This document shows, piece by piece, positions 237-42,003 of a stretch of 52,080 nt of DNA. Each line of letters starts with the position of its first letter. Position 1 is the stretch's first letter. Made by a program: the position numbers and the translations under genes. The notes under the pieces were generated by a model that saw nothing but the letters and a program-made list of their open reading frames with translations, was not told where the DNA came from and did no database searches. Origin of the DNA: an uncultured Chromatiales bacterium (lineage in GTDB: Bacteria; Pseudomonadota; Gammaproteobacteria; SZUA-140); contig CAZJKV010000002.1 of assembly GCA_964546765.1 (NCBI GenBank), positions 1,664 to 53,743 of the forward strand. The letters run 5' to 3'.

Positions 237-325
237 AATGGCTGGTGTCCACTCATGGGTGGGATGATCACGCCAAACAGCGGTGCGGCTTATGGGCAGC
301 GTTATGAACGTGGCAGATCACAGCT

Positions 326-1381: not shown

Positions 1382-1393
1382 GCGTTCATATCA

Positions 1394-1772
1394 GGGTTCT
1401 ACCCCGTTTGCACGGACGGTTGAGTTAAGAGTAAATCCTTCCGGTTGAGCATTTCCATCTGTCGCCGTTTGCGAGGATTATGGAATCGCTCGATATAGTC
1501 AAAGATATCCGCCCTGGCCTCATCCCGCGGCCGGCCCTGGCCATGAAAAGCCCTGGGACCCGCACCGCTCAACTCGCGGCACCACCGGCCCAGCATATTG
1601 GCATTGATGCCCAGTTCTCGGGCCACCTGACTGACCCGGACATCTGATGTCCTCGCCAACTCGACGGCCTCCCGCTTATACTCCAAGGAGTACTTTTACC
1701 GTTTCTGCATGACACACCTCCCGGGCCATTATCGCCCTTTTTGGTTGTGTCCGCGCTAGCGGGGTAGAACCC
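1394..1772 (-). mobile_element. Internally deleted IS3-family remnant (about 380 bp) bounded by imperfect terminal inverted repeats
   Basis: GGGTTCTACCCCG at 1394-1406 is the exact reverse complement of 1760-1772. The match extends inward at 6 of the next 9 positions. The interior encodes only an OrfA N-terminus fused to an OrfB C-terminus. Confidence 0.6.
1399..1710 (-). pseudogene. IS3 transposase pseudogene (OrfA HTH part fused to OrfB tail, with a premature stop)
   Basis: The minus-strand reading is ATG CAG AAA CGG TAA, giving MQKR*, then KYSLEYKREAVELA...VSQVARELGINANMLGRWCRE...FHGQGRPRDE (IS3 OrfA HTH). This is joined directly to DIFDYIERFHNPRKRR (OrfB C-terminal motif). The whole catalytic core is missing. 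Confidence 0.65.
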
Positions 1773-2253
1773 CAATGCACTGGACGGGTAATAGCCGGCT
1801 TCGCCGCCCGTTGCCCGCCGGCGATAGCTCGCAACGACGCGCCGGTAGGCGCTTGCCAAGCCCGGCCTTGGATCTGTCTCGCTCCGTTCGGTCGTTTCTG
1901 AGATACATCAGATAGAGCCTCGGCTCTATGCTGCCTAGCAGCGCAAGCACGTTGCAGCTTCGCCTCCGTTCCGTAGCTGCATGTGCTGAGCGGCGTTCGG
2001 CGTCATGGAAATGGGGGGCAGACCAGTGGTATCCGGCCTACGGCCAAAGTTTCGGTTTGGCGAGGATCCTCGGCGGATGCGACCGTGAAGGCCGTCTGAA
2101 AGCATTAGAGGCGAACTGTGGGACTCTGAGGTCCGAGCAATCAGAAGACGGTGGGGAGGATTGTGATGAGTACCGGACGAATGCAATGATACTAGATCTG
2201 ACCCTGTTTGTTCAGTTTCGTCAACAAACCCTCAAACGGATGGGCAAGCGCTA

Positions 2254-3786
2254 ATGGACGACACATCTGACCGAACTTGCCAGCGGCTGCCAGCGGCTGC
2301 GCCAACAATCGATCACGGAGGAACTCCTCGACATCGTGGGCAGTTCCTGGTTCAAACTTGGGGCCTTGCCTGGTCTCGACCGGCCCGCCTCATCTGCGCC
2401 ACGTTCCTGTGTTGCGCTGTCTTTACGTTCACCTCAGTTGATGCCCAACAGTTAGACGGCAGCCAGGATAAGCCGGTGCCGGCGAAAGCGCCTGACGGCA
2501 AACCCGAGGCACCAGGTAAAGTTGAAATCCAACCCATCGTCAAGGATGACGAGATCAGGCAACGAATTGCGGATATTCTTGAAACGACAGGCTGGTTCGG
2601 CGAGCCCATGGTCGCTGTCCAGGACGGGATCGTTTTCCTGAAAGGAACAACGGAGAACGATGAATACAAGCAATGGGCGGGAGATTTAGCGAAGAGTACG
2701 GAGGGCGTGGTTGCTGCCGTCAACCAAATCGAAGTGGCTCTAACGACGGTTTGGGATTTTGATCCAACCTTTCAGATTCTGAATGATCTGTCACGCCGAC
2801 TCGTGCGATCACTTCCCCTTATCGTGGTGGTGGTGGTCGTAATCGCTATTTCTTGGTTCGCCGCCAAGTTAACGTCGTACGTACTGCGTCGCCGGCTTCT
2901 GGATCGATCCCTCAGCCAGCTTTTGCGCGAAGTAGTGGCCCGGGCTGGCGGAATACTTGTAATGCTTGCCGGCTTATACCTTGTACTCCGTATCGCCGGG
3001 CTCACGCAACTCGCGCTTACGGTGGTGGGCGGCACAGGCCTGATTGGTTTGGTGCTTGGCATCGCATTCCGCGAAATCACCGAAAACTTTCTCGCCAGTC
3101 TCTTTCTGAGTTTGCAGCAACCGTTTCGTGAGGGCGATCTGATAGAAGTAGCAAACGTTACGGGTTACGTTCAGCGGCTGACCTCTCGCACGACTGTTCT
3201 GATGACACTCGACGGCAATCAAGTGCAAGTTCCCAATTCGACCGTCTTCAAAAGCACGATCCGCAACTTCACCAGCAATCCCAATCGCCGCGAAGATTTC
3301 ATCGTGGGTATCGGTTACAACGATTCCATCACTTTTGCCCAGGAAGTCGCCTTGAAGGTTCTCGCTGAACATCCGGCCGTTTTGAATGATCCTGAACCCT
3401 TGGTGCTCGTCGAAAACCTTGGATCGTCCACGGTGAACCTACGGCTTTATTTCTGGCTCGATGGCAGTCGACACAGCTGGGTGAAAGTGAAATCGTCCGT
3501 CATTCGGCTTGTCAAACGGGCCTTCCAGGATTCGGGAATCTCGCTGCCGGACGAGGCCCGCGAAGTCACCTTCACTCAAGGTGTGCCTGTACGCGTGATT
3601 GATGGCGAAGGGGCTGCGGAACCAGCCGAGCCAGCTTTGGCGAAGCCGACTGCCGAGCCCGAAACAGTCGCGACCAAGTCGGAAGCCAGCCTGCAAAGCG
3701 AAGCAGAGGAAATCAAGGAGCAGGCGCGCAGATCCTGGACCCCTGGGGAGAATCTCTTAACTTCATCGTCCGCGGATACCAGTTGA
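2254..3786 (+). CDS. Mechanosensitive ion channel (MscS family) with N-terminal periplasmic BON domain
   Basis: BON-like segment VAVQDGIVFLKGTTENDEYKQWAGDLAKSTEGVVAAVNQIEV, followed by TM helices. MscS beta-domain GDLIEVANVTGYVQRLTSRTTVLMTLDGNQVQVPNSTVF. The start codon is uncertain; the signal-like LICATFLCCAVFTFTSVDA lies about 45 aa in. Confidence 0.8.
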   Translation: MDDTSDRTCQRLPAAAPTIDHGGTPRHRGQFLVQTWGLAWSRPARLICATFLCCAVFTFTSVDAQQLDGSQDKPVPAKAPDGKPEAPGKVEIQPIVKDDEIRQRIADILETTGWFGEPMVAVQDGIVFLKGTTENDEYKQWAGDLAKSTEGVVAAVNQIEVALTTVWDFDPTFQILNDLSRRLVRSLPLIVVVVVVIAISWFAAKLTSYVLRRRLLDRSLSQLLREVVARAGGILVMLAGLYLVLRIAGLTQLALTVVGGTGLIGLVLGIAFREITENFLASLFLSLQQPFREGDLIEVANVTGYVQRLTSRTTVLMTLDGNQVQVPNSTVFKSTIRNFTSNPNRREDFIVGIGYNDSITFAQEVALKVLAEHPAVLNDPEPLVLVENLGSSTVNLRLYFWLDGSRHSWVKVKSSVIRLVKRAFQDSGISLPDEAREVTFTQGVPVRVIDGEGAAEPAEPALAKPTAEPETVATKSEASLQSEAEEIKEQARRSWTPGENLLTSSSADTS

Positions 3787-3883
3787 AGGCGCGTGGGTGT
3801 CAATAAAAGAGGGCGTGGAATCCGGATGTGAATCGATGAAGTCTGCATTCGCCACTGATCATGGTCATTAGAAGGAAAATATT

Positions 3884-4159
3884 ATGAAGCATCTTCCGAA
3901 AAATGTAGCTCCCTATAAAAGAACGCCTGAGTTCACTGAAGATTCAATACCGAAAGGATTGCTTCATGAGCACAGCACCAAGGAATTGGTCTGGGGTAAG
4001 ATTGTGGTCCTCGAAGGAAAATTGCAGTACACGATTAACGAACCTGAACGAGAAGTTATAATCCTCGATGAGCATAATTACGGCGTTGTTGAGCCCAATG
4101 TACGCCATGAGGTAAAGCCATTGGGTAAGGTCCTTTTTTATGTTGAGTTCCACAGGTAA
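3884..4159 (+). CDS. DUF1971 (YeaR / TehB N-terminal domain-like) protein
   Basis: 91 aa. The small beta-rich pattern WGKIVVLEGKLQY...GVVEPNVRHEVKP...FYVEF resembles the YeaR/TehB-N family as I remember it. GGAAAATATT lies upstream of the ATG. Confidence 0.65.
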   Translation: MKHLPKNVAPYKRTPEFTEDSIPKGLLHEHSTKELVWGKIVVLEGKLQYTINEPEREVIILDEHNYGVVEPNVRHEVKPLGKVLFYVEFHR

Positions 4160-4262
4160 TGCGTCTTCTAACCAGACGTTTAACCAGACCCTAAAAGATA
4201 AGGTCTTCTTGCACAATTAGCTGAGCTCATTTTGTCACACAGATTAAGGGGGTGCAGTAGCT

Positions 4263-4631
4263 ATGGATCTAAAATTTCAGCCCGGTAGAAACATTGCCGT
4301 GAAGATACCCACTCACGAGCATCAAGAAACGATGCATTTTTACAGGGATGTGCTTCGCCTGAATGAGATACCGCCTACTGGGCCTGACAACACCCCTCGA
4401 TTTGAGTTTGGCGATATGGTTCTTTGGCTTGATTGCGTGCCTGGCCTAAGCCAAGCCGAGATTTGGCTGGAAATAGTTACCAATGATATCGGCCAAGCAT
4501 CTGACTACTTCAAGGAGCAAGGATGCTATCGTCGTGATGAGATTGAGCCACTGCCTAGTGGCTTTAAAGCGTTCTGGATTTCAAGCCCCTCCAACATAAT
4601 TCATTTGGTTTCTTCAAGTAATGACACGTAA
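4263..4631 (+). CDS. VOC/glyoxalase-fold family protein (tentative)
   Basis: 122 aa. The size and the pattern IAVKIPTHEHQETMHFYRDVLRL...FWISSPSNIIHLV fit a single VOC module. AAGGGGG RBS lies upstream. Assignment is by resemblance only. Confidence 0.5.
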   Translation: MDLKFQPGRNIAVKIPTHEHQETMHFYRDVLRLNEIPPTGPDNTPRFEFGDMVLWLDCVPGLSQAEIWLEIVTNDIGQASDYFKEQGCYRRDEIEPLPSGFKAFWISSPSNIIHLVSSSNDT

Positions 4632-4720
4632 CCAGGCCATTAAATTCGCTCCCTTCGGTCCCCGGACGCTGGATCCTCGCGCCGTTTATGGCTAGCTTTA
4701 GACGCACGGAATGTACATTT

Positions 4721-5494
4721 ATGACTACCGTTGAAGAACACTACAAAAATCATCTTGCTCCTGTCTACCTATGGATGGCAGGCGGCTTCGATGCCGCAGT
4801 ATCTCGCGGCGAGGGCGAGATCAACGCCATTTGCCAGAATCCGTCGATTGGACACTCTGCTGTTGACCTCGGTGCGGGCTTCGGTATGCACTCCATACCA
4901 CTGGCCCGTCGTGGCTATTCAGTTGTCGCAATCGATAGATCATCGAAACTTCTTGATGCATTACGAGATCATGTCGAGACGTTACCAATTCAAGTGGTAG
5001 AGGATGATCTGCTGTCCTTTCAGAAGCACTTGAACACGATGGCGCACCTCATTCTGTGCATGGGTGACACACTGACTCATTTATCAGAGTTGCAGTCCGT
5101 CGAGAAACTATTTTCTCTTGTCGCTGAGTCGTTGCACCCGGACGGTACATTTATTACTACCTTCCGTGACTACACATTCCCTCTCGTTGGGGATGGACGT
5201 TTTATCCCCGTAAAATGTGACAACGATCGCCTGCTGACTTGCTTTCTTGAGTACTCTCCCGACTACGTTACCGTTCACGATGTGCTTCATGAGCGAAATG
5301 CTTCTACTTGGCAACTACGAGTCAGCTCTTATCGAAAACTCAGGCTTTCGCCGGAGTGGGTATCCACGATACTTCAAGCCAGAGGGTTTACGGTTCGCAT
5401 CGAGCCCGGGCTTTCAGGCATGGTTCGTATTGTCGCTAACAAGCGACTGGCCTCACATTTGAGAGGGACTGGCTACATTATCCCCTCAATTTAG
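4721..5494 (+). CDS. Class I SAM-dependent methyltransferase (TehB-like motif I)
   Basis: Motif I AVDLGAGFGMHSIPLARRGYSVVAIDRS resembles TehB-type LDLGCGNGRNS...G..V.A.D. The ORF is open from 4688. I prefer the ATG at 4721 (MTTVEEHY), without strong evidence. Confidence 0.75.
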   Translation: MTTVEEHYKNHLAPVYLWMAGGFDAAVSRGEGEINAICQNPSIGHSAVDLGAGFGMHSIPLARRGYSVVAIDRSSKLLDALRDHVETLPIQVVEDDLLSFQKHLNTMAHLILCMGDTLTHLSELQSVEKLFSLVAESLHPDGTFITTFRDYTFPLVGDGRFIPVKCDNDRLLTCFLEYSPDYVTVHDVLHERNASTWQLRVSSYRKLRLSPEWVSTILQARGFTVRIEPGLSGMVRIVANKRLASHLRGTGYIIPSI

Positions 5495-5530: not shown

Positions 5531-6073
5531 ATGATCCGGTTGACCGATTCCTGGCAGGAACACAAGTCACGCCTGCGCGCCTACATCGCCAGGCGCGTCG
5601 GTGATCATGATGCGGTCGAGGACATCCTCCAGGACGTGTACCTCAAGGCCCACACGAGCCTGCATACGGTCAGGTCGCGTGGCAGCATGCCGGCCTGGCT
5701 GTACCGCATCGCAGCGAATGCGATCGCCGATCACTACCGTTCCCTGAAGCCGTCGCAAGCGCTACCCGGCGAACTCGCGACGCCCGAGCCGCAACGGGAC
5801 CATGTCGCGGAATTGGCGACCTGCCTGCAACCGATGATCTCGGAACTGCCGGAGGCCTACCGTTCAGCACTGGTCATGTCGGAGATCGAGGGCCTGCCCC
5901 AGAAAGAGGTGGCAAGTCGCCTGGGCATCACCCTGTCCGGCGCAAAATCCCGGGTGCAACGCGGCAGGGACATGCTACGCCGGCGGCTGCTCGACTGTTG
6001 TGATGTCGAAACCGGACGGGCCGGCATCGTAGGCTACACACCTCGCGACAGGGACTGCGGCGGCTGCGGCTGA
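5531..6073 (+). CDS. ECF-type RNA polymerase sigma factor, SigZ/CorE-like, with Cys-rich C-terminal tail
   Basis: Region 2 DILQDVYLKAH...WLYRIAANAIADHYRS. Region 4 LPEAYRSALVMSEIEGLPQKEVASRLGITLSGAKSRVQRGR. Tail LLDCCDVETGRAGIVGYTPRDRDCGGCG. No anti-sigma gene is adjacent. Confidence 0.85.
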   Translation: MIRLTDSWQEHKSRLRAYIARRVGDHDAVEDILQDVYLKAHTSLHTVRSRGSMPAWLYRIAANAIADHYRSLKPSQALPGELATPEPQRDHVAELATCLQPMISELPEAYRSALVMSEIEGLPQKEVASRLGITLSGAKSRVQRGRDMLRRRLLDCCDVETGRAGIVGYTPRDRDCGGCG

Positions 6074-7148: not shown

Positions 7149-7685
7149 GTGCATCAGCCGAAAGTGGAAGCAGTACCAGACCCGAGCGGTACAGAGAGAC
7201 GGGAGGTCAATTTGGGTCCGAGAGGAGAGCATGTACGCACCATAGTTCAGGCATTGCGCGTGATCTACGGTTCGATCCAGGCGCATTCGCACTGGATCGA
7301 GCAGCAGTGCGGCGTAAGCGCCGTGCAGTTGTGGGCCCTGCGGGAACTCAGCGGCGCGCCCGGCCTCAAGGTCACAGAGCTCGCCTTGGTTCTCTCGGTT
7401 CATCCGTCGAATTGCTCCAGCATGGTCGACAAATTGCGCAAGAAGGGCTTCGTGCGCAAGCAGCGTATCGGCCCGGACCAGCGCGTTGTCCGGCTCTATA
7501 TCACGCCGAAGGGACAGGAATTGCTCGATACCGCGCCGGTTCCGATGCAGGGAGCGCTGGTCGATGCGCTCGCTGGCTTGCCCGAAGACGTGCTGTCGAG
7601 TCTCGATACCCATCTCACGAGCGTCATCAAGAGCATGAAGGTCAAGGACCCGTTGGCCGCAATGCGGCCGATGACCGGTCACTGA
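7149..7685 (+). CDS. MarR-family transcriptional regulator
   Basis: Winged-helix segment LWALRELSGAPGLKVTELALVLSVHPSNCSSMVDKLRKKGFVRKQRIGPDQRVVRLYITPKG. An alternative TTG start at 7212 lies 5 nt after GGGAGG (7201-7206). Confidence 0.85.
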   Translation: MHQPKVEAVPDPSGTERREVNLGPRGEHVRTIVQALRVIYGSIQAHSHWIEQQCGVSAVQLWALRELSGAPGLKVTELALVLSVHPSNCSSMVDKLRKKGFVRKQRIGPDQRVVRLYITPKGQELLDTAPVPMQGALVDALAGLPEDVLSSLDTHLTSVIKSMKVKDPLAAMRPMTGH

Positions 7686-7755: not shown

Positions 7756-8676
7756 ATGCCGGTAATGAGTCACGCCGGCCGCCCACTGATCTTTGGCGAG
7801 GTGCTGTTCGATGCCTTCCCGGACGGCAGCGAGGTGCTCGGCGGCGCGCCGTTCAATGTCGCGTGGCATCTGCAGGGTTTCGGCCTGCGTCCGCTGCTGA
7901 TCAGCCGGACGGGCAGTGACGCGCGCGGTGAGCGGATCCTCGGCACGATGGGTGACTGGGGCATGGACGTCGCCGGCGTACAGCAGGATGATCATCGCCC
8001 GACCGGGTCCGTCATCGTGACGCTGAACAACGGCCAGCCGGTCTTCGAGATCGTTCCCGACCAGGCCTGGGATCACATCGAGGCGCTGCCGGCGTTCGCC
8101 GCGGCGAGCGACAGCGACATCGCGCTGATCTATCACGGCACGCTCGCGCTCAGGAACGCAACATCTTGCGATGCGTTGCGCGAATTGCGCGAGCGGCTGT
8201 ATGCGCCGGTCTGCATCGACGTGAACCTGCGCCCGCCCTGGTGGGACAGGAAACTGCTCGCGGGCTTGCTGCATGGCGCCGGGTGGGTGAAACTCAACGA
8301 TACCGAGCTGGAGACGCTTATCGGCGAGACGCTTGCGGACGCGTCGGATCTCGAGTGCGCCGCCGCGGTTTTGCGGCGCCACCACGAGATCGATACCCTG
8401 GTGATCACCCGGGGCGCGAGCGGCGCGATGATCATGAACGGCGACGGCGTCTGCCACGGGGCGCCTGCGCTGGTACCGACACTGGTCGATACCGTCGGCG
8501 CCGGTGACGCGTTCAGCGCGATCGCGCTGCTGGGTATGCTGCAGGGCTGGCCGGCGGCGGTGACGCTCACGCGCGCGTTGCGTTTTGCGTCGGACGTCTG
8601 CGGTATGCGCGGCGCGACGGCGCCGGACCGCTCGCTGTATGAGCGGCACACCGAACAATGGGACGGACTTCGCTGA
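7756..8676 (+). CDS. PfkB-family carbohydrate kinase, probable fructokinase
   Basis: GGAPFNVA near the N-terminus and the DTVGAGDAF PfkB signature. The stop overlaps the next start (TGATG). Confidence 0.8.
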   Translation: MPVMSHAGRPLIFGEVLFDAFPDGSEVLGGAPFNVAWHLQGFGLRPLLISRTGSDARGERILGTMGDWGMDVAGVQQDDHRPTGSVIVTLNNGQPVFEIVPDQAWDHIEALPAFAAASDSDIALIYHGTLALRNATSCDALRELRERLYAPVCIDVNLRPPWWDRKLLAGLLHGAGWVKLNDTELETLIGETLADASDLECAAAVLRRHHEIDTLVITRGASGAMIMNGDGVCHGAPALVPTLVDTVGAGDAFSAIALLGMLQGWPAAVTLTRALRFASDVCGMRGATAPDRSLYERHTEQWDGLR

Positions 8677-10853
8677 TGCCGAAGCCTGGGGATGGGCTCT
8701 ATATCGTGCTGATCAGTGTCCACGGGCTGATCCGCGGACACGACCTCGAGCTCGGGCGCGACGCCGATACCGGCGGTCAGACGCTTTATGTGCTCGAACT
8801 GATGCGCGCGCTTGCCGCTCACCCCGATGTCGCACGGGTCGACCTGCTGACCCGGCGAGTGCATGACGCGAAGGTCAGCGAAGACTACGCCCAGCCCTAT
8901 CAACAACTCGGCCCGAAGTCGCACATCATACGCCTCCCCTGCGGTCCGCGCCGCTACCTGCGCAAGGAGGTGCTATGGCCACACCTCGACAGCTTCGCCG
9001 ACCAGGCGCTCAAGCATATCCGCAAGGTCGGGCAGGTGCCGGACGTCATCCACGGCCACTACGCCGACGCCGGCTATGTGGGCGTGCGATTGTCCAATCT
9101 GCTCGAGGCGCCGCTGGTGTTCACCGGCCATTCGCTTGGACACGTCAAGCGCGAGCGCCTGATCGAGCGCGGCGTCAAGCCCGAGGTCATTGAAAAGCAG
9201 TATCACATCAGTCAGCGCATCGAGGCCGAGAACATGGCGCTCGACAATGCGTCTCTGGTCGTCGCCAGCACCCACCAGGAAGTCGAGGTCCAGTACAGCC
9301 GCTACGACAACTATCAGCCCACACGCATGGTCGTGATCCCGCCCGGGATCGACCTGGAGCGCTTCTATCCGCCGAAACGCGGCCGATTCCAGCCGGATAT
9401 CTATTACCAGATCAAGCGCTTCCTCACCGCGCCGGACAAGCCGTTGATCCTCGCGATCGCACGGCCGGATCCGCGCAAGAACCTGACGACGCTGGTCGAG
9501 GCCTATGGCCGGCACCCGGACCTGCGCGAGCTCGCGAATCTCGTCATCGTTGCCGGCAATCGCGAGGATCTCGTATCAATGGAAAAGGGTCCACGCCGCG
9601 TGCTGAGTGAGCTGATGATGCTGATCGATCGCCATGACCTCTATGGCCACATCGCCTATCCCAAGCATCACCAGTCCGGGGACGTGCCCTATCTTTATCG
9701 CATCGCGGCACGCTCACGCGGGGTGTTCGTCAACCCCGCGCTGACCGAACCGTTCGGTCTGACCCTGCTCGAGGCTGCCGCGAGCGGCCTGCCGATTATC
9801 GCGACCAACGATGGCGGACCACAGGACATCATCAAATATTGCAGAAACGGCCTGCTGATCGATCCGCTTGATACCGACGGACTCGGTGCTGCACTGCACG
9901 CGGCGCTGTCCGACCGACGCCAGTGGTCGCGCTGGTCGAAATCCGGCATTGCCGGCGTAAAGCGTCATTTCTCGTGGGATGGGCATGTGGTGTCCTATCT
10001 CGGGGAGATCGAAAAGGTGATGGGCAAGATTACACGCCGGCACGGACCTCCGCCCGCGCTGAAGAGCAAGCTGCCGGTGTCCGACCGCGTGCTGGTCTGC
10101 GACATCGACAACACGCTGATCGGGGACGATGAATCACTCGATGCGCTGCTGAATCTCATGCACAGGTCACCGGAACGCATCGGTTTCGGTGTGGCGACCG
10201 GGCGGCGCATAGACAGCGCGGTCAAGGTGCTCAGGGAATGGGATGTCCCGGCGCCGGACTTCATCATCTCCGCGGCAGGGGCGGAGATCCATTACGGTCC
10301 GAAGCAGGTCGACGACGAGACCTGGAAGAAACATATCGATTTTCGCTGGGAGCCCGAACTGGTGCGCGAGGCGATGCGCAGCATCCCGGGGCTTAAGCTG
10401 CAACCGAAAGATGAACAGCGCCGCTACAAGATCAGCTATTTCGTGGACACCAGCCGTTTTCCCGGGCTGCGTGACGTGTTGCGCCACCTGCGCCGACTCG
10501 ACATACACGCCAGCGTCATTTATTCGCACCAGGCCTATTGCGACCTGCTTCCGGTGCGTGCATCAAAGGGCGCGGCCCTGCGTTACCTGGCCGACAAGTG
10601 GGGCATCTCCCTCGAGCGCATCCTCGCGGCCGGCGATTCCGGCAACGACGAGGAGATGCTGTCGGGTCAGACCCTCGGCGTCGTCGTCGGCAATCACAGC
10701 GTGGAACTCAAAAAACTGCGCGGCAATGACCGGATCTATTTCGCGAGCGGCCATTACGCCGCGGGGATCATCGAAGGCATCAGGTATTATGATTTTCTGG
10801 GTACCGAAGAGACCCGGAAGAAGGAGGCAACATCAAAGATCACAGCGGCGTGA
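8676..10853 (+). CDS. sps: Sucrose-phosphate synthase with C-terminal HAD (sucrose-phosphate phosphatase-like) domain
   Basis: GT-B motifs [27 protein letters not shown] and [16 protein letters not shown]. The C-terminal HAD motifs are intact: [25 protein letters not shown]. The ORF is open from 8658; the ATG at 8676 overlaps the fructokinase stop. Confidence 0.85.
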
Positions 10854-13288
10854 ATGCGCACACGGGCGATAACGGCAACGGCAATGGCAAGGGCCTGGAG
10901 GCCGCGGTAGAACAGTACCTGCACGAGCAGCGCGAGGCCTGTTACATGCTGCTGCGCCGGTATATCGCGCTCGACCGGCCGTTCCTGCTGCGTTCCGATA
11001 TCCTCGATGAATGCCGCGCCTTCTGCGCGGAAAACCCCGCGCTCGCCTTCGAGGCGTCGCCGCTTTACCAGATGATCCTTTCCGCGCAGGAAGCGGCGGT
11101 CTCCGCGCCGTGGGTGTGTATCGCGATCCGGCCGTCGATCGCGCGCTGGAAGTACTACCGCATCCACGCCGAGTCCCTGCACGCCGAGGCGATCGAGGTT
11201 TCCGGGTTCCTCGCGTTCAAGGAACGGCTCGTCAACGGCGCGGGACAGGCCGACGACTGGGCGACGCTCGAGTTCGATATCGGACCCTTCAGCCGCGAGT
11301 TCCCGCGCTTGCGCGAGTCGCGCTCGATCGGCCGCGGGGTTGAATTCCTGAACCGGCGCCTGTCGAGCCAGCTGTTTCAGGAGATCGGCAAGGGCGACCA
11401 GCGCATGCTCGACTTTCTGACGGTGCATCAATGCCAGGGCCGCCAGTTGATGGTCAACGACCGCATCGACAGCGTCACCGAGCTGCGTCGCCAGTTGCGC
11501 AGCGCGGAAGACCTGCTGGCAAGGCATCCCGACGATGCGCAGTGGGACGATGTCGGGCATGCGCTGCAGTCACTCGGCTTTGAGCCTGGCTGGGGCCGCA
11601 CCGTCTCCCGGATGCGCGATACCCTCTCGCTGCTGCGCGACATCCTCGAGGCGCCCGATCGCGACAACCTCGAGCTGTTCCTCGGCCGCGTCCCGATGAT
11701 CTTCAACCTGGTGATCCTGACCCCGCATGGCTATTTCGCGCAGGCCAACGTGCTCGGCATGCCGGACACCGGCGGGCAGGTCGTCTATATCCTGGATCAG
11801 GTGCGCGCGCTCGAGAAGGAGATGCGGCGCCGCCTGTCCGAGCAGGGCATAGACATCGACCCCCGGATCCTCGTCGTGACCCGCCTGATCCCGGAGGCAA
11901 AGGGCACCAGCTGCGATCAGCGCAGCGAGGAAATCATCGGCACTGAGCATGCGCGCATCCTGCGTGTCCCGTTTCGTAGCCCGGACGGCGAGATCGTGCC
12001 GCACTGGATCTCGCGCTTCGAGGTCTGGCCGTATCTCGAGCGCTTCGCGCTGGAGGTCGAGAAGGAGGTGCTCGCCGAACTCGCAGGTCGCCCCGACCTT
12101 ATCGTCGGCAACTATTCCGACGGCAACCTGGTTGCGACGCTGCTGTCGCAGCGCCTGCACGTGACCCAGTGCAACATCGCCCATGCGCTCGAGAAGCCGA
12201 AGTACCTGATGTCCGATCTCTACTGGAAGGCGAACGACCAGGAGTATCATTTCGCATGCCAGTTCACCGCCGACCTGATCGCGATGAACGCCGCGGACTT
12301 CATCATCACCAGCACCTACCAGGAGATCGCGGGTAATGGCGACAGCGTCGGGCAGTACGAGAGCTACACCTCGTACACGCTGCCGGACCTGTATCGTGTC
12401 GTGCGCGGCATCGACATGTTCGACCCGAAGTTCAATATCGTCTCGCCAGGCGCCGACGAAGAGGTCTATTTTCCGTATTCCGACGGCGCGCGCCGGCTGA
12501 CCTCGCTGCACGGCGAGCTCGACGCACTGGTCTACGGCGATGAGCCGCGGCCCGACGCACGCGGCGTACTGGCAGACCGTGACAAGCCGCTGTTGTTCTC
12601 GATGGCGCGACTCGATCGCATCAAGAACATCGCCGGACTGGTCGAGTGGTTCGGTGCGAGCAGTCGCCTGCGCGAGCGGGCGAACCTGCTGATCGTCGCC
12701 GGTCACGTCGATGCGGGCCGTTCCGCGGACCGCGAGGAACAGGCGCAGATCGCGCGCATGCACGAACTGATGAACCAGTACGCGCTCGACGGCGAGGTGC
12801 GCTGGCTCGGCGTGCAACTCGAGAAGAACATGGCGGGCGAGCTCTATCGTTATGTCGCCGACCGGCGCGGCGCCTTCGTCCAGCCGGCGCTGTTCGAGGC
12901 CTTCGGCCTGACGGTCGTCGAGGCAATGAGCGCCGGCCTGCCGACCTTCGCGACCCGCTATGGCGGTCCGCTCGAAATCATCGAGGATGGGCGGTCCGGC
13001 TTCCACATCGATCCGAATCACGGCGAGCGGTCGGCGGAGATCATCGCCGCATTCCTCGAGCGTGCGATGCAGGAACCGGCGCACTGGCAGCGCATCTCGG
13101 AACAGGCGCTGGAGCGCATCCGCAGCCGCTATACCTGGTCGCTGTACGCCGAGCGCATGATGACGCTGTCGCGTATCTACGGGTTCTGGAAATATGTGAC
13201 CAACCTCGAACGCGGCCAGGCCCGGCGCTATCTCGAGATGTTCTACGCGCTGCAGTACCGCGGACTCGCGAGCCGGATCCCGGACTGA
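10850..13288 (+). CDS. Sucrose synthase
   Basis: 812 aa. [23 protein letters not shown] and [20 protein letters not shown] are characteristic of SuSy-type GT4 enzymes. The GTG start overlaps the sps stop (GTGA). Confidence 0.85.
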
Positions 13289-13343: not shown

Positions 13344-13420
13344 GCGCCCTTAGCTCAGTTGGATAGAGCGTTGGATTCCGATTCCAAAGGTCAGAGGTTC
13401 GAATCCTCTAGGGCGCGCCA
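13344..13420 (+). tRNA. tRNA-Arg (anticodon CCG)
   Basis: Hand-folded cloverleaf: acceptor GCGCCCT/AGGGCGC, D arm GCTC-AGTTGGATA-GAGC, anticodon arm TTGGA-TTCCGAT-TCCAA, variable loop AGGTC, T arm AGAGG-TTCGAAT-CCTCT, discriminator G, encoded CCA. Total 77 nt. Confidence 0.95.
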
Positions 13421-24379: not shown

Positions 24380-24502
24380 CTCGGATAGACCGGATTGATC
24401 GGGAAGCGCCGGCGCCGGGTCGTCCGCCGCCGCTGTGGTGTATCCCGATGATTATACTTTAATGTTAGAGTATTGCCCTACCGCCGAGTTCACCGATCGA
24501 TC

Positions 24503-25135
24503 ATGGAAATCCCGAACCCCTTCCAGCGCGCCGTCTTCCTGCAGGGCGCGCCGCTGAATGCCCCGCTGCCTGCCGATCGCGGCCTCGAGGCTGCCTTCGC
24601 CGGCCGCTCGAACTCCGGAAAATCCAGTGCGCTCAACACGCTGACCGGAAAGCGCGGCCTCGCGCGCACGAGCAGGACGCCAGGGCGCACCCAGCAGATC
24701 AATTTCTTCGACCTCGGCGACGACCGCCGCCTCGCGGACCTGCCGGGTTATGGATACGCGAAGGTACCGGAGTCCATTCGCCTGCAGTGGAAGCCGCTGA
24801 TCGAGCGCTATCTCGTGGAGCGCCGTTCGCTGAAGGGCCTGGTGCTGACCGTCGACTGCCGCAGGGATTTCGGCGAACTCGAGGCGATGATGCTCGACTG
24901 GTGCGACGAGACCGGCATGCCGGTGCATCTGCTGCTGACCAAGTCCGACAAGCTCAAGCGCGGTCCCGCGCACGCGGCCCTGCATCGCTGGCAGGCGTTG
25001 CTGGCTGCGCAACCGGGGCTCGATGCCGGGGTCCAGCTGTTCTCTTCGCTTACCCGCGTTGGCGTCGACGAGGCGCGAGAGCGGCTGGCGGCCTGGCTGG
25101 AGCTGGATTTTGGGCAAAAAAAGGCCCCAGTGTAG
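24503..25135 (+). CDS. engB: Ribosome biogenesis GTP-binding protein EngB/YihA
   Basis: GRSNSGKSSALN (G1), DLPGYG (G3), LTKSDK (G4). The ORF is open from 24473; I prefer the ATG at 24503. Confidence 0.85.
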   Translation: MEIPNPFQRAVFLQGAPLNAPLPADRGLEAAFAGRSNSGKSSALNTLTGKRGLARTSRTPGRTQQINFFDLGDDRRLADLPGYGYAKVPESIRLQWKPLIERYLVERRSLKGLVLTVDCRRDFGELEAMMLDWCDETGMPVHLLLTKSDKLKRGPAHAALHRWQALLAAQPGLDAGVQLFSSLTRVGVDEARERLAAWLELDFGQKKAPV

Positions 25136-25244
25136 AGAGAGGGAGGGAAAAGCTGGGGCCAACAAAGCCCGGCTTGGGGGTACCGGGTACTGTATCCCCG
25201 CAAGGGAGGTTGACGGGGAAATCCTGCGTAATTGCACCGATCTG
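25116..25244 (-). ncRNA. Candidate sRNA of about 130 nt in the polA-engB spacer (Spot 42/ErsA position)
   Basis: A sigmaE/AlgU-like promoter lies upstream. An 8-bp GC stem (25160-25153 / 25130-25123) followed by U7 (25122-25116) lies at the 3' end. There are two internal GC hairpins and no plausible ORF. The ends are estimates. Confidence 0.5.
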
Positions 25245-25249
25245 CTTAG

Positions 25250-25278
25250 TGAGACAGCGTACAATCCGAAAAAGTTCA
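25250..25278 (-). promoter_or_regulatory. SigmaE/AlgU-type promoter TGAACTT-N17-TCTCA
   Basis: The minus strand reads ccTTGAACTTtttcggattgtacgctgTCTCActaagca. The -35 element is at plus-strand coordinates 25278-25272 and the -10 at 25254-25250. Confidence 0.45.
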
Positions 25279-25356
25279 AGGCGCCGCGAAAAAATCACAT
25301 CATGGCCCTGAAACGAGCAAGAATACATGGGCTTGTTCCGGTGCGCAGGCGGCGGG

Positions 25357-28080
25357 TCAGTGTGCCTGGTCCCAGTTGTCGCCGATACCGGTGTCAACGA
25401 CCAGCGGCGTGCGAAGGTCTGCGGCGGCCGCCATTTCCCGGGTGATCGCCGCAACGGCCGCGTCGCAGCGCGCCTCGGGGACCTCGAACACGAGTTCGTC
25501 GTGGACCTGCATGATCATGTCGATGTCCCGGCCCTCGTCCTCGAGCCATGCGTCGACCTTCAGCATCGCGCGCTTGATGATATCGGCGGCGGTGCCCTGC
25601 ATCGGCGCATTGATCGCGGCGCGTTCTGCGTATTCGCGGCGCTGGCGGTTGCGCGACTGGATCTCGGCGAGATAGAGGCGGCGGCCGAACAGGGTCTCGA
25701 CATGACCCTGCGCGGCGGCACGCTTGCGCGTCTCTTCCATGAAGGCCTGCACGTCCGGGTAGCGCGCGAAATAGCGGTCCATGTATTCCTGGGCCGCGTT
25801 GCGCGTAACCCCGATCTGGCGCGCGAGCCCGAACGACGACATCCCGTAGATCAGGCCGAAGTTGATCGCTTTCGCGCTGCGCCGCTGTTCCGGGCTGACC
25901 TGGTCGAGCGCGACGCCGAAGATCTCGGCCGCGGTCGCGCGATGGATGTCGAGCCCGTCGCGAAAGGCCTCGATGAGCCGCGCGTCGCCGGACAGATGGG
26001 CAAGGATGCGCAGCTCGATCTGCGAATAGTCGGCGGCGAGCAGCTTGCAGCCGGGCGGCGCGATGAAGGCCTGCCGGATGCGACGCCCGGCCTCGGTGCG
26101 TACCGGGATGTTCTGCAGGTTCGGATTGCTCGACGAAAGCCGCCCGGTCGCCGCGACCGCCTGGTGATACGAGGTGTGTATGCGCCCGGTCCGCGGATGG
26201 ACAAGTTCGGGCAGGCGGTCCGCATAGGTCGATTTCAGTTTGCTGAGCGCGCGATGTTCGAGGATCAGCTGCGGTAGCGGATAATCGAGGGCGAGATCCT
26301 GCAGCACCGATTCGGCGGTCGATGGCTGTCCCTTCGGCGTCTTCTGCAGCACCGGCAGGCCCTGGCGCTCGAACAGGATCTCCTGGATCTGCTTCGGCGA
26401 CGCGAGGTTGAAGGTCTCGCCTGCGGTCTCATAGGCCTGGTGTTCGACCGTCTCGATCTGGCGGCCGAGCTCCTCGCCTTGCGCGCGCAACATGTCTGCG
26501 TCGACGAGCACGCCATGGCGTTCGATGCGCGCGAGTACCGGCACCAGCGGCATCTCGATCTCCTCGTACACGTATTTCAGTCCCTTGTCTTCGGCGAGCT
26601 TCGGCCACAGGGCCTCGTGCAGCTGCAGCGTGACGTCGGCGTCCTCGGCGGCATAGCGCGTCGCGGTATCGATTTCGACCTGGCTGAACGGCTGCTGTTT
26701 CGCGCCCTTGCCGGCAACGTCCTCGTAGCTGATGGTCTTGTGCCCGAGGTATTTCAGCGCCAGGGAATCCATGTCGTGCCGGGTCGCGGTACTGTTCAGG
26801 ACATAGGATTCGAGCATCGTGTCGTGGCGCAGCCCCCGCGGCACAATGCCGTAACCCGCGAGCACGCTGACGTCGTATTTCAGGTTCTGTCCGATCTTGC
26901 CGATGGACGTGTCCTCGAGCAGCGGCTTCAGCCGCGCCAGCACCCGCTCGCGATCGAGCTGGGGCGGGGCGCCTTCGTAATCGTGCGCGAGCGGGACGTA
27001 GGCGGCCTCGCCGGCGCGGATCGCGAACGACAGGCCGACGATCTCGGCGTCGAAGGCCTCGAGGCTCGTCGTTTCGGTGTCGAACGCGAAGCAATCGGCC
27101 TTGCCGAGGCGATCGATCCAGGCCTCGAGCGCTGTGTCGGTCAGCAGTGCCTGGTAGTCCGCTTGCGCGGGCCGAGGGTCGCCGCCCGCGACTGCCGCGG
27201 CCGCCGGTTCGTCCTGTGCGTTCAGGACCTCCTCGAGCAGTCGGCGGAATTCGAGGCGCTGGTAGAGCTGCCGCAGTTCCCCGATGTCCGGCGCCTTGCG
27301 CGCGAGATCGGCCGGTTCGACGTCGAGCGCGACGTCGCGCTTGATCGTGACGAGTTGCCGCGCGAGCGGCAACTGCCCGAGATGTTCGCGGATGCGCTCG
27401 CCGGTCTTGCCCTTGATGGCGCCGGCCGCGCTGACGACGCCGTCGAGCGAGCCGTATTCCTCGAGCAGGCGCACCGCGGTCTTCGGGCCGATGCCCGGAA
27501 CGCCGGGGATATTGTCGGAGGTATCGCCGATCAGGGCGAGCCAGTCGACGATGCGCTCGGGCGGGACGCCGAACTTCGCCTCGACGCCGGCCGCATCGAG
27601 GCGCTGGCCGGTCATCGTGTTGATCAGCGTCACATGCGGAGCGACGAGCTGGGCCATGTCCTTGTCGCCGGTCGAGATCAGCACATCGATGTCGCGGTCG
27701 AGCGCGCGTTCGGCGAGCGTGCCGATGACATCGTCCGCCTCGACGCCGTCGACGACGAGGCACGGCAGGCCGAGTGCGCGCACGATCGCGTGCAACGGCT
27801 CGATCTGGGATCGCAATTCGTCCGGCATCGGCGGGCGATTGGCCTTGTAGGCGTCGTACAGATCATCGCGAAAGGTCTTGCCTTTCGCGTCGAAGACGAC
27901 TGCGATCAGCGCCGGATCGTATTCCCTGAGCAGCGTGCGCAGCATCTGGGTCACGCCGTAGACGGCGCCGGTCGCCTCGTTATGCGAGTTTGTCAGTGGC
28001 GGCAGGGCGTGGAAGGCGCGATAAAGGTACGAGGAACCATCGACCAGCACCAGCAGTTTGGGGTTCTTGTTCTGCGTCAT
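25357..28080 (-). CDS. polA: DNA polymerase I
   Basis: 907 aa. It has a 5' nuclease N-terminus, a 3'-5' exo domain, and polymerase motifs [22 protein letters not shown] and QVHDELVFE. Confidence 0.97.
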
Positions 28081-39266: not shown

Positions 39267-39811
39267 GTGCGCAAGGACGTAAATCCATCAGACCGCCCGG
39301 TATTCTGACGGTTCTGCCGTTGCTGCTGTTGCTCGCGGGCTGCAGCGACAGCGGCGTATCGGACCTGCGCGCCTTCGTCGAGGAAGCCAAGCAGAAACAG
39401 GGGCGCGTCGCGCCGTTACCGGAATTCAAGCCGGTCGAGACCTTCGCCTATTCCGCCCATACCCTGAAGGATCCATTCCGGGGCTGGAGTTCGGACACCG
39501 GCAATGCCGTGGCGGAGCGGAACGATTCCGGGATCCGGCCTGATGTCAGCCGCAACAGGGAAGTGCTCGAGGGCTACCCGCTCGACACCCTCCGCATGAT
39601 GGGGGCGCTCGAATTCCAGGGGGTCCGCTGGGGACTGGTCAGGGCGCCGGATGGAATCGTCTATCGCGTCAGGCAGGGTAATTACATGGGACAGAACTAC
39701 GGCAAGGTCCAGGCGGTCAGCGACAACAAGCTCATGTTGACCGAGATTGTGCCCGATGGACTGGGAGGATGGGAGGAACGCAACGCATCCCTCGCCATCA
39801 GCGAGCAATGA
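39263..39811 (+). CDS. pilP: Type IV pilus assembly lipoprotein PilP
   Basis: Lipobox LLLLLAGC. C-terminal beta-domain LVRAPDGIVYRVRQGNYMGQNYGKVQAV. Confidence 0.8.
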   Translation: MSAQGRKSIRPPGILTVLPLLLLLAGCSDSGVSDLRAFVEEAKQKQGRVAPLPEFKPVETFAYSAHTLKDPFRGWSSDTGNAVAERNDSGIRPDVSRNREVLEGYPLDTLRMMGALEFQGVRWGLVRAPDGIVYRVRQGNYMGQNYGKVQAVSDNKLMLTEIVPDGLGGWEERNASLAISEQ

Positions 39812-39834
39812 GCCCGCAACGGAGGATGTCGAGC

Positions 39835-42003
39835 ATGATTACCCCGGGATCGAGATACCAACAGGATTGGACACATGACATGGCGCCAGAAAATTACAAT
39901 AGAAATGCATGCGGTTACCTGACGATGCTCCTGCTCGCGCTGTCGCTGTTTTTCGCGACGGCGGCCACAGGCCATGCCGCCGATCAACGGCTCGAATCCT
40001 GGGATTTCTCCGCGCTGCCCGGCAACAAGGTCCAGATCCGGTTGGGACTCGCTGGCGTGACGACCGAACCGAATATGCTGAGTTTCTCGATCGACAATCC
40101 GGCGCGTATCGCCCTCGATTTCCCCGGCACGACCAGCGGCGTCCCCAGGCAGAAAACGGTCGGCGTCGGCGTCGTGCGCAGCATCAACGCCGTCGAATCG
40201 GGCGGGCGCACGCGCGTCGTGCTGAACCTCGACCGGATGGCGCCCTACGAAACCCGTATCGAGGACGGAAATGTCTACATCGTCATCGAAGGCGCCGCTT
40301 CACGCGTCGCGCAGGAAGGGAGATCCGGGTTCACCATGGCGGCGGCCTCCGGTGAAGCGGCTGGCGCCGGCGCGCAGCGACGGATCTCCGCCATCGATTT
40401 CAATCGTGGCCAGCAGGGCGAGGGCCGCATCCTCGTAACCCTCCCCGACGTCAACACACCGGTCAACGTCGAGCAGCGGGGCGGCCGCATCACCGTCGAT
40501 TTCAGGAACGTCCAGTTGCCTGAGGATCTGAAACGGAGGATGGAAGTCGTCGATTTTGCGACCCCGGTCACGCAGGTCGACAGCTTTCCCGAGGGCGACG
40601 GTGTCCGCCTCGTGATCCGGACGGAAGGACTGTTCGAGCATCTTGCCTACCAGTCCGACCGCACCTTCACCCTCGAGGTCAAGCCGCTCACCCGCGAGCA
40701 GCGTGAACAGAGGGAGAAGGAGGAATACACCGGCGAGCGCCTGTCCCTGAACTTCCAGGACATCGAGGTCAGGGCCGTGCTGCAGATCATCGCCGACTTT
40801 ACCGGCATGAACATGGTCAGCAGCGATTCGGTGCAGGGCAACGTGACCCTGCGGCTGCACAATGTCCCCTGGGACCAGGCGCTTGATATCGTGCTCAAGA
40901 GCCGGGGACTCGGCATGCGCCAGGTAGGCAATGTGATCATGGTGGCGCCGGCGCAGGAGATTGCCGCGCGCGAGAAGCAGGAGTTCGAGTCGCGCCAGCA
41001 GCTTGACGACCTGGCGCCGCTGATGTCGGACCTGATCCAGGTCAATTACGCCAAGGCGGAGGACGTGGCGGTCCTGCTCAAGGCCAAGGAGAACTCGATG
41101 CTGTCCGAGCGCGGCAGCGTCACGGTCGACCTGCGCACCAACACGCTACTGGTCAGGGACACCTCTGACAAGCTGGTCGATATACGCAACCTGGTCGGCA
41201 AGCTGGACATACCCGTCAGGCAGGTGCTGATCGAATCCCGGGTCGTTGTCGCGAACGACGACTTCAGCCGCGACCTCGGTGTTCGTCTCGGCACGACCGG
41301 GGTCAAGAGCCACAGCGGGAGCGGCATCATCGGGACCTCCGGCACGCTCGCCGGTACCGGGCAGATGGTCGACAGCGCACCGATGCCGGTCAACTTCCCG
41401 AGCCTCGACAACCGCCTGAACGTCAACCTGCCGGCCTCGAACGCGTCCGGCACACCCGCGAACTTCGCGCTCGCGGTGCTCGGATCCGATTACCTGATCG
41501 ATCTCGAGTTGTCGGCGATGCAGGCGGAGGGCCGCGGCGAGGTCATCTCGACGCCGCGCGTCATCACCTCCAACCAGAACCAGGCCACCATCGAGCAGGG
41601 TGTCGAGATCCCCTACCTGACCGCGGCCTCGAGCGGCGCGACGACGGTGCAGTTCAAAAAGGCGGTGCTGGGCCTGACGGTCAAGCCGCATATCACGCCT
41701 GACGACCGCGTCATCCTCGACCTGTCGGTCAGCAAGGACAGTGTCGGCCAGGTCTTCCAGGGCGTCCCGAGCGTAGACACACGCGAGGTCGTGACCCAGG
41801 TGCTGGTCAACAACGGCGAGACGGTCGTGCTCGGCGGAATCTACGAGCAGGAGCGCGCCGAGGGCGTCAACAAGGTGCCCTTCCTCGGCGACCTCCCGAT
41901 TATCGGCGCACTGTTCCGGCAGAGCAGCCGGGTCGACAGCAAGAACGAGCTGCTGATCTTCGTGACGCCGAAGATCCTCAAAGACACCCTGACGATGCGC
42001 TGA
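39835..42003 (+). CDS. pilQ: Type IV pilus secretin PilQ
   Basis: AMIN-like N-terminal repeats and secretin C-domain ...VPFLGDLPIIGALFR...ELLIFVTPKIL. I chose the ATG at 39835, 9 nt after GGAGG. ATGs at 39808 (ATGA with the pilP stop) and 39826 are also possible. Confidence 0.9.
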   Translation: MITPGSRYQQDWTHDMAPENYNRNACGYLTMLLLALSLFFATAATGHAADQRLESWDFSALPGNKVQIRLGLAGVTTEPNMLSFSIDNPARIALDFPGTTSGVPRQKTVGVGVVRSINAVESGGRTRVVLNLDRMAPYETRIEDGNVYIVIEGAASRVAQEGRSGFTMAAASGEAAGAGAQRRISAIDFNRGQQGEGRILVTLPDVNTPVNVEQRGGRITVDFRNVQLPEDLKRRMEVVDFATPVTQVDSFPEGDGVRLVIRTEGLFEHLAYQSDRTFTLEVKPLTREQREQREKEEYTGERLSLNFQDIEVRAVLQIIADFTGMNMVSSDSVQGNVTLRLHNVPWDQALDIVLKSRGLGMRQVGNVIMVAPAQEIAAREKQEFESRQQLDDLAPLMSDLIQVNYAKAEDVAVLLKAKENSMLSERGSVTVDLRTNTLLVRDTSDKLVDIRNLVGKLDIPVRQVLIESRVVVANDDFSRDLGVRLGTTGVKSHSGSGIIGTSGTLAGTGQMVDSAPMPVNFPSLDNRLNVNLPASNASGTPANFALAVLGSDYLIDLELSAMQAEGRGEVISTPRVITSNQNQATIEQGVEIPYLTAASSGATTVQFKKAVLGLTVKPHITPDDRVILDLSVSKDSVGQVFQGVPSVDTREVVTQVLVNNGETVVLGGIYEQERAEGVNKVPFLGDLPIIGALFRQSSRVDSKNELLIFVTPKILKDTLTMR

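Follow-up and report, generated by a model that had tools for sequence, protein, structure and literature searches.

The spacer between polA and the GTPase gene engB (yihA) is a known site of small RNA (sRNA) genes, holding spf, the gene for Spot 42, in enterics (bioRxiv 10.64898/2026.07.10.737749) and ersA in Pseudomonas (PMC8575079). ErsA is dependent on sigma22/AlgU and represses translation of algC (PMC8395346; PMC13613067), a repression aided by Hfq (PMC8395346). The sRNA sX13, whose authors noted its association with polA and raised the question of sRNAs at this locus in other bacteria, is induced by salt and heat and lowers type IV pilus mRNAs. It represses without Hfq, its C-rich loops pairing with G-rich motifs located at or close to the ribosome-binding site (RBS); the paper makes no mention of sigmaE or RpoE (PMC3771888). 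A further RNA, ncS04 of the anti-hemB family, has been verified by Northern blotting and binds Hfq (PMC5688073). Here the polA-engB slot is analysed in a 52,080-nucleotide (nt) stretch of DNA, referred to as the window, from an uncultured Chromatiales bacterium (GenBank assembly GCA_964546765.1, contig CAZJKV010000002.1, positions 1,664 to 53,743 of the forward strand). The element in question, on the minus strand at 25243-25116, is probably a gene in its own right. Its product would be a trans-acting sRNA of about 128 nt, transcribed under sigmaE, with C-rich loops that would occlude G-rich ribosome-binding sites.

As comparison with homologues shows, the element is not a chance arrangement of hairpins. 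The same comparison firmly places the window RNA as an orthologue of a widespread family, resident in the polA-engB slot, that Rfam does not capture; and the conservation of promoter, terminator, structure and loops strongly implies an independent transcription unit.

The polA-engB spacer and the predicted transcript

The genes for DNA polymerase I (polA, 25357..28080, minus strand; NF004397, 1208.8 bits) and for the ribosome-biogenesis GTPase EngB/YihA (an open reading frame (ORF) at 24473..25135, plus strand; TIGR03598, 209.4 bits) are convergent, with 221 nt between them. The predicted RNA gene follows polA on the minus strand and, like polA, converges with engB. The two protein models bear out the assignment of this spacer to the slot of spf and ersA made in a first-pass annotation, which had been drawn up from the letters alone. 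That annotation had also described, about 80 nt past the polA stop, the promoter motif TGAACTT-N17-TCTCA; two short GC hairpins (CCCCG/CGGGG and CCCGG/CCGGG); an 8-bp GC terminator stem with seven U overlapping the end of engB; C/U-rich sequence in all three loops; and the lack of a credible ORF. Each of these features was recovered here, at the positions that follow.

On the minus strand the polA stop codon TGA (25359-25357) is followed after 79 nt by the promoter motif (25278-25250), consisting of a -35 element TGAACTT (25272..25278) and, after a 17-nt spacer, a -10 element TCTCA (25250..25254), which together form a promoter of sigmaE/AlgU type, resembling those of group ECF02 of the extracytoplasmic function (ECF) sigma factors. 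Both elements are identical in the closest relative found, locus L001. A tract of six T at 25289..25294, about -46 to -51 from the predicted start, could be an UP-like element; A/T tracts are found 5' of the -35 element in many homologues, yet overall A+T content there is only 53%, which gives this suggestion little weight. Transcription is predicted to start at A25243, 7 nt past the -10 element, a position set by the geometry of sigmaE promoters and matched in L001 by an A at equal offset, and to end in the U7 tract, giving a transcript (25116..25243) of about 128 nt.

Between the -10 element and the first strong stem-loop (SL1) lies a leader of about 25 nt, within which the minimum free energy (MFE) fold predicts a weak hairpin, SL0 (GAUC..UGC-AAUUAC-GCA.GAUU, 25220..25242). 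SL1 (25195..25219) has the stem CCCCG(U)/(G)CGGGG, with core arms CCCCG at 25218-25214 and CGGGG at 25200-25196, and a loop containing AACCUCCCUUG; SL2 (25168..25187) has the stem CCCGG/CCGGG, with arms at 25187-25183 and 25172-25168, and the loop UACCCCCAAG. A U-rich linker, CUUUGUU (25161..25167), which may be an Hfq site, then precedes SL3 (25116..25160), an intrinsic terminator consisting of the 8-bp stem GGCCCCAG/CUGGGGCC (arms GGCCCCAG at 25160-25153 and CTGGGGCC at 25130-25123), a 22-nt loop CUUUUCCCUCCCUCUCUCUACA, and U7 at 25122-25116. Read on the minus strand the three hairpin loops are CCUCCCUU, UACCCCCAAG and CUUUUCCCUCCCUCUCUCU, with the motifs CUCCCU, CCCCCAA and CCCUCCC in loops 1, 2 and 3 respectively. 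The hairpins are evident in the sequence and are returned by the MFE fold, in which the three of them and the weak 5' hairpin together give -45.4 kcal/mol (z = -2.1). SL3 was not reported by a simple terminator scan because its 22-nt loop exceeds the scanner's limit of 8. The engB stop codon TAG (25133-25135, plus strand) falls within the SL3 loop, and therefore the 3' arm and U-run of SL3 are antisense to the last six codons (last 20 nt) of engB.

A coding function for the element was considered and rejected. The minus-strand ORFs that overlap it (275, 134 and 131 amino acids (aa)) traverse engB or polA coding sequence, antisense to it or in another frame, and none of them passed a third-position-GC filter that both engB and polA passed; in addition the homologues vary by loop indels and compensatory stem changes, which is a non-coding pattern. 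With Rfam 15 at gathering thresholds no family was assigned at the element, the only curated RNA family in the window being tRNA (a tRNA gene at 13344-13417, plus strand, 71.4 bits).

Homologues, covariation and promoters

Homologues were collected through a scan with the polA C-terminus, one genome per species, which gave 80 loci, and through a metagenome scan with an RNA-only pattern (CTCCC-N8-32-CCGGNNNCCCCAAGYCGG), imposing no genomic context, which gave 80 further loci; more than 70 homologues were found in total. An initial alignment of nine homologues with MAFFT and RNAalifold yielded a poor consensus and a covariation term near zero, because differences in loop length shift the stem arms out of register, and it was superseded by a covariance model seeded from four coherently aligned sequences. 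This model, R1, was built on L012, L038, L041 and L043 only, to the exclusion of the window, and it aligned with the window end to end at 25116-25225 (minus strand; model positions 1-104) with 52.2 bits (E=9e-12 in a 0.5-Mb search); it also detected 65 copies among the 80 metagenomic loci. A second model, R2, was built from 73 copies with the window included and with no ErsA or sX13 sequence among them. The element, which is part of the R2 training set, scored 76.6 bits (E=1.3e-19) as the sole match in the window. A repeat or mobile element was rejected as an explanation: the R2 search found a single copy in the window, and the synteny is conserved.

The closest relative, L001, is from an unclassified gammaproteobacterial metagenome-assembled genome (MAG) whose polA C-terminus has 78% amino-acid identity to that of the window. 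Downstream of polA it carries TGAACTT-N16-TCTCA and the same three hairpins, with 128 of 153 aligned positions identical across promoter and RNA, while the spacer upstream of these cannot be aligned. Three-hairpin elements like that of the window are present in Methylothermaceae, Woeseiaceae, Rariloculaceae and many unclassified MAGs; from the Lysobacteraceae one locus was retrieved in the polA scan (polA identity 67%). When 40 related loci were searched with Rfam, only the known ErsA, one sX13 and one anti-hemB were named, ErsA solely in loci from Pseudomonas, Stutzerimonas and Halopseudomonas, and sX13 in one Lysobacteraceae locus (50.8 bits). In AT-rich Methylococcales a shortened and divergent version was observed (L009 3343-3427, L024 3466-3551 and L072 3507-3594), with a sigmaE-type promoter, one hairpin with a CCCCCU loop, and a terminator, matched weakly by R2 (E=3e-4 to 0.02).

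The first-pass annotation had proposed a check for covariation in the three stems across related spacers, and had raised the possibility of a divergent or new family; both were borne out, in that no Rfam family reaches its gathering threshold in the window, anti-hemB, ErsA and sX13 appear to be related to the element, and all three helices contain compensatory changes. In the 73-sequence alignment, standard pairs occupy 93.2% of cells and changes on both sides are seen in 20 of 23 pairs (263 cells), values attained in none of 500 shuffles; sliding the partners by 1-3 columns lowers pairing to 31-57%. Compensatory change affects all nine pairs of helix 1 (SL1), four of the six in helix 2 (SL2), and seven of the eight in helix 3 (SL3), where 98% of cells are paired. 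The inner pairs of SL2 hardly vary, which is due in part to the metagenome search pattern, in which they were fixed. An alignment of the metagenomic copies alone gave a similar picture, and folding of single sequences recovered hairpins with C-rich loops in 10 of 10 homologues, nine of which showed the full three-hairpin form.

The loops behave differently from the stems. Among 14 loci retrieved through polA, a set unbiased by any RNA pattern, 13 have CUCCCU in loop 1 and 12 have CCCCA in loop 2, on stems that vary; and the SL3 loop motif UCCCUCCCUCUCU is common to the window, L001 and L011. Conserved loops carried on varying stems are the pattern that would be expected of seed loops held out by structural stems. 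In many members a further hairpin follows the predicted start (UGAGCGCC-GCAA-nGGUGCUCA or GAGUGC-AUAA-GUCACUC; L100, L138, L026, L098, L142, L041, L111 and others), to which the window and L001 have only a weak counterpart.

The promoter, first read as a sigmaE/AlgU-type sequence, is conserved together with the RNA. Among the 69 non-redundant homologues with enough upstream sequence, 60 match GGAACTT-N16-TCnnA at at least eight of ten positions; the window matches at nine, with its 17-nt spacer. The family consensus, (G/T)GAACTT-N16-TCTAA, matches that of RpoE/AlgU. In the 60 good promoters GAAC is found at the -35 element in 57-59, and at the -10 element T is found in 59, C in 60 and the final A in 53; 51 copies have a 16-nt spacer and seven a 17-nt one, and the end of the -10 element lies 12-26 nt before the modelled RNA. 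A stricter motif, within 70 nt upstream, is present in 51 of 70 copies and in 1.4% of random control windows from the same loci.

These promoters bear directly on the proposal that the structured region is simply the 3' untranslated region (3' UTR) and terminator of polA, its hairpins serving to stop or stabilise the polA transcript and any short RNA being a product of processing rather than of independent transcription. The proposal draws on the position of the element: 79 nt separate it from polA, with which it shares its strand, and its terminator is the first strong one past that gene, the terminator scan having found no convincing polA terminator between the stop codon and the promoter motif. 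It is at odds with a sigmaE-type promoter directly upstream of the RNA in 60 of 69 homologues, including most of the tandem copies listed below, and with a conservation of the loops that goes beyond the needs of a terminator; ErsA and sX13, moreover, are independently transcribed in published work. At L007, L026 and L051 another gene stands between polA and the RNA, which is 766-932 nt from polA, and still the promoter stays directly upstream of the RNA. At L152 (4809-5172) there are two copies, each scoring 44 bits, that are not near polA at all, being flanked by a pseudouridine synthase gene on one side and an RlmL-like methyltransferase/HrpA helicase region on the other; these lie outside the polA-engB slot and therefore the family is not strictly tied to polA. 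Taking these observations together, a polA 3' UTR is a very improbable explanation. The intervening gene at L007 (3561-4115) encodes an outer-membrane beta-barrel protein (Pfam OMP_b-brl, 1.4e-17), and the arrangement at L051 is similar; since sigmaE-dependent sRNAs often control outer-membrane proteins, the insertion at L007 is suggestive.

Although the metagenome search imposed no context, nearly all copies follow polA on its own strand and converge with engB. Several loci carry tandem arrays of 2-4 sibling copies, situated between polA and engB wherever the flanks are present, the copies being about 240-290 nt apart in the tighter arrays: L084 (506-1375), L124 (4478-5348), L134 (6378-7238), L128 (5103-5684), L148 (4906-5568), L123 (8717-9093), L158 (1094-1444), L109 (3419-3773) and L117 (1-1746). 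An individual GAACTT-N16-TCTAA promoter precedes most of these copies; none is seen before the copies nearest engB in L158, L109 and L117. The arrays also help in judging whether the element might serve mainly in cis, as a convergent antisense or bidirectional terminator tuning the 3'-end formation or stability of engB. Such a role would make sense of the overlap between the 3' arm and U-run of SL3 and the last six engB codons, and in about a dozen homologues, L001, L041 and L029 included, the engB match (tblastn) reaches or overlaps the element; most homologues, by contrast, are from about 1 to several hundred nt away from engB, and the upstream copies of an array are far from it. Conservation extends to the loops and the promoter but not to the overlap with engB; read on the plus strand, the hairpin has AACAAAG after it and no U-run, and would make a poor engB terminator. 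A mainly cis-acting role is thus very improbable, and an independent sRNA gene remains the preferred interpretation.

Proposed mode of action and candidate targets

We infer transcription, the sigma factor, the pairing of loops with Shine-Dalgarno (SD) sequences, the use of Hfq and the targets, and the following scheme is put forward in that spirit. Envelope stress would release a sigmaE-type sigma factor, which would direct transcription from about 25243; the transcript would stop at the intrinsic terminator SL3; and the apical loops CCUCCCU, CCCCCAA and CCCUCCCUCUCU would pair with G-rich sequence in the ribosome-binding regions of selected mRNAs, so that binding of the 30S subunit would be blocked and translation and mRNA stability would fall. 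The apical loops, loop 1 (ACCUCCCUU) among them, resemble the anti-SD sequence of 16S rRNA, ACCUCCUUA, and it is this resemblance, along with the mechanisms of relatives, that led to the adoption of a model combining a stress sigma factor with occlusion of SD sequences.

It might be supposed instead that the RNA is a genuine member of the family which answers to another ECF sigma factor or another stimulus, or one whose main effect is to titrate Hfq or some other RNA-binding protein, and not to occlude ribosome-binding sites. An AAC-containing -35 element is common to many ECF groups; the window has a single ECF sigma gene, which is SigZ-like; and ncS04 expression was unchanged in the stresses tested in Burkholderia (PMC5688073). 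The family consensus, on the other hand, fits RpoE/AlgU in both elements and in their spacing, and ErsA, in the same slot, is sigma22-dependent by experiment. Some mRNAs are raised in abundance by sX13 (PMC3771888), and ErsA activates amrZ, observations to be set against the accumulation of sX13 under salt and heat and the finding that its C-rich loops and the G-motifs of its targets are both required for repression (PMC3771888). On balance these variants are unlikely, and SD occlusion under a sigmaE-type factor is retained as the working model. The SigZ-like ECF sigma gene (5531-6073, plus strand; TIGR02959, 195 bits) was itself considered as the source of the cognate factor and rejected, as it is not RpoE. 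It is followed by a methyltransferase gene and a MarR-family gene, not by an anti-sigma gene.

A search of the window for pairing sites produced two candidates, to be regarded as leads only. Loop 3 is predicted to pair at 13 of 14 positions with AGAGAGACGGGAGG (7193-7206, plus strand), which spans a GGGAGG sequence 5 nt before an in-frame TTG of a MarR-family ORF (7149/7212-7685, plus strand); use of this TTG would give a typical MarR protein of 157 aa. At -28.6 to -30.1 kcal/mol this is the strongest non-self site among 10,406 windows, the next independent site having -23.6. The start region of pilQ (CUGGGAGGAUGGGAGGAA, 39748-39785; gene at 39769-42003, plus strand), for which the start codon is uncertain, gives -22 to -23 kcal/mol with loop 3, in the top 0.16% of windows.

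Several considerations weigh against the proposed sRNA gene and its mode of action. The start site and length of the window RNA are predictions, and the folding z-score (-2.1) is modest. GAACTT-N16/17-TCNNA occurs once in the 52 kb, both strands counted, with 0.39 occurrences expected and at least one match in 31 of 100 shuffles, so that the motif taken alone is not significant in the window; the promoters of ECF sigma factors resemble one another, and the sole ECF gene in the window is of the SigZ-like and not the RpoE type. Covariation was counted after the alignments had been fitted to the model, a procedure biased towards the structure, and SL2 in the metagenomic set was in part fixed by the search pattern. 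The Rfam scores of ErsA, sX13 and anti-hemB at the element are far under their thresholds, and the link to ErsA consists of two hairpins out of three together with E-values from a roughly calibrated model. The relatives also disagree over Hfq, sX13 acting without it and ErsA and ncS04 using or binding it, so that dependence on the chaperone is not inferable from them; and the target leads were drawn from 52 kb only.

Elsewhere in the window, positions 1-5000 have a G+C content of 0.48-0.56, compared with about 0.63 for the remainder, and none of the ORFs there of 100 aa or more passes the high third-position-GC filter; the segment is possibly foreign, or else non-coding. Adjacent genes for a sucrose-phosphate synthase/phosphatase (731 aa) and a sucrose synthase (812 aa) at 8658-13288 (plus strand), a pair uncommon in Gammaproteobacteria, hint at a compatible-solute lifestyle.

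Relationship to known small RNAs

When the 451-nt region was searched with all 4227 Rfam families in E-value mode, the three best matches were anti-hemB (RF02837), Pseudomon-1/ErsA (RF01719) and sX13 (RF02232), in that order, with 22.7 bits (E=0.0042; gathering threshold 49.5), 19.3 bits (E=0.19; threshold 50) and 17.5 bits (threshold 50) respectively. Two of these, ErsA and sX13, already have a known place beside polA, and all three matches are to be taken as leads and not as memberships. Spot 42 (RF00021), which with ErsA had been singled out for such a search in the first-pass annotation, gave no match in 25000-25450 at E<=10 and none at the gathering threshold, and membership of the Spot 42 family was rejected accordingly. 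The reverse comparison was more informative. R2 matched the Lysobacteraceae sX13 locus L078 with 38 bits (E=1.7e-8), all three hairpins being aligned, and in each of the 12 ErsA loci it matched exactly where ErsA lies, with scores of 18-27 bits (E=3e-5 to 8e-3) and two hairpins aligned. One copy at L128 (5109-5203) passes the Rfam threshold for anti-hemB (51.1 bits against 49.5); it belongs to a three-copy array situated between these two genes, polA and engB, every copy of which is detected by R1, and it would appear to tie the beta-proteobacterial anti-hemB family to this slot. From these alignments sX13, anti-hemB/ncS04 and, more distantly, ErsA appear to belong to one polA-engB family with the window RNA.

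It is tempting to go further and to suggest an ancient lineage of sRNAs, with a sigmaE-type promoter and anti-SD mimicry, kept in the polA-engB slot across Gammaproteobacteria and subject to tandem amplification (2-4 copies), of which sX13, anti-hemB/ncS04 and ErsA would be diverged members of one superfamily and Spot 42 possibly a re-wired descendant; we would give this broader proposal about an even chance of being correct. Were it true, the locus would be among the oldest conserved trans-acting sRNA loci known; sigmaE control would be predicted for sX13 and ncS04; targeting of G-motifs by C-rich loops would become testable for relatives of ErsA; and the whole family could be annotated by a single covariance model. 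Rfam curates sX13, anti-hemB and ErsA as three apparently unrelated families, and they have been studied separately, in plant, cystic-fibrosis and opportunistic pathogens. A search of the openly searchable literature, which does not extend to subscription papers such as the original 2015 report of ErsA, found no paper naming sX13 and ErsA together and none describing a broad three-hairpin family with a sigmaE-type promoter. This genome gains a regulatory RNA gene with good support, for which an inducing signal and seed regions can be predicted and which current annotation models miss. To the specialist an individual sRNA gene is ordinary; the unification of the family, its conserved promoter and its tandem arrays are worth following. 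The question posed by the sX13 authors (PMC3771888) is also answered, the polA locus encoding structurally related predicted sRNAs in dozens of mostly uncultured gammaproteobacterial lineages. The points of likeness and difference can be set out for each known RNA in turn.

Spot 42, transcribed from a sigma70 promoter under repression by CRP-cAMP, is a regulator of carbon metabolism that uses single-stranded regions for pairing. It shares with the window RNA the polA-yihA/engB slot and orientation (bioRxiv 10.64898/2026.07.10.737749). Its terminator stem, GCCCCAG/CUGGGGC, resembles that of SL3, and R2 matches weakly (13-15 bits, E about 0.1-0.2) at the Spot 42 terminator in L037, L045 and L059 (3630-3687) and in L013 (3573-3653), where the stem in Vibrio and Edwardsiella is CGCCCCAG...CUGGGGCG, to be compared with GGCCCCAG...CUGGGGCC in SL3. 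Common descent of Spot 42 with the family is speculative, this being a faint hint at best. The sigmaE-dependent sRNAs of enterics and Vibrio, namely MicA, RybB, MicL and VrrA, use 5' single-stranded seeds and Hfq. They have no sequence or structural relationship to the window RNA; they share with it the promoter class, and the expected logic would be the same, a stress sigma factor giving rise to a repressor RNA and hence to less envelope protein.

The anti-hemB RNAs give the best Rfam match. Their SL1 consensus, CCCGC-uUCuCCUCCCUGa-GCGGG, is nearly equal to SL1 of the family, a hairpin with a CCUCCCU loop is common to them and the window, and they too end in a terminator hairpin; they differ in that the middle hairpin is without the CCCCAAG loop, and they have been described adjoining hemB in Burkholderia (PMC1950547). 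ErsA occupies the same spacer in the same orientation (PMC8575079), has the same type of promoter (TGAACTT-N17-TCAGA in the Pseudomonas locus L008), and likewise holds CCCUCCCC in the loop of its terminator hairpin. It consists, however, of a long single-stranded 5' region and two hairpins, whereas the window RNA has three strong hairpins and a weak 5' one, and only two of the three hairpins can be aligned, with some ambiguity as to which internal hairpin is the matching one. With R2 E-values of 3e-5 to 8e-3, homology of ErsA to the three-hairpin family is to be judged likely but not proven. The last of these RNAs is sX13. Its loops (CCCC, CCCC and CCCCC) differ from the CCUCCCU, CCCCCAA and CCCUCCCUCUCU of the window, it has been reported as restricted to Xanthomonadaceae, and engB has not been described as its downstream neighbour in Xcv. 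In its position downstream of polA on the polA strand, however, it agrees with the window RNA, and the sX13 locus L078 has a GGAACC-type -35 element and a TCTAT motif resembling a -10 element upstream. It agrees also in overall architecture, being about 115 nt long, with an unstructured or weakly structured 5' part followed by three stable hairpins with runs of C in their loops, the last of which is the terminator (PMC3771888).

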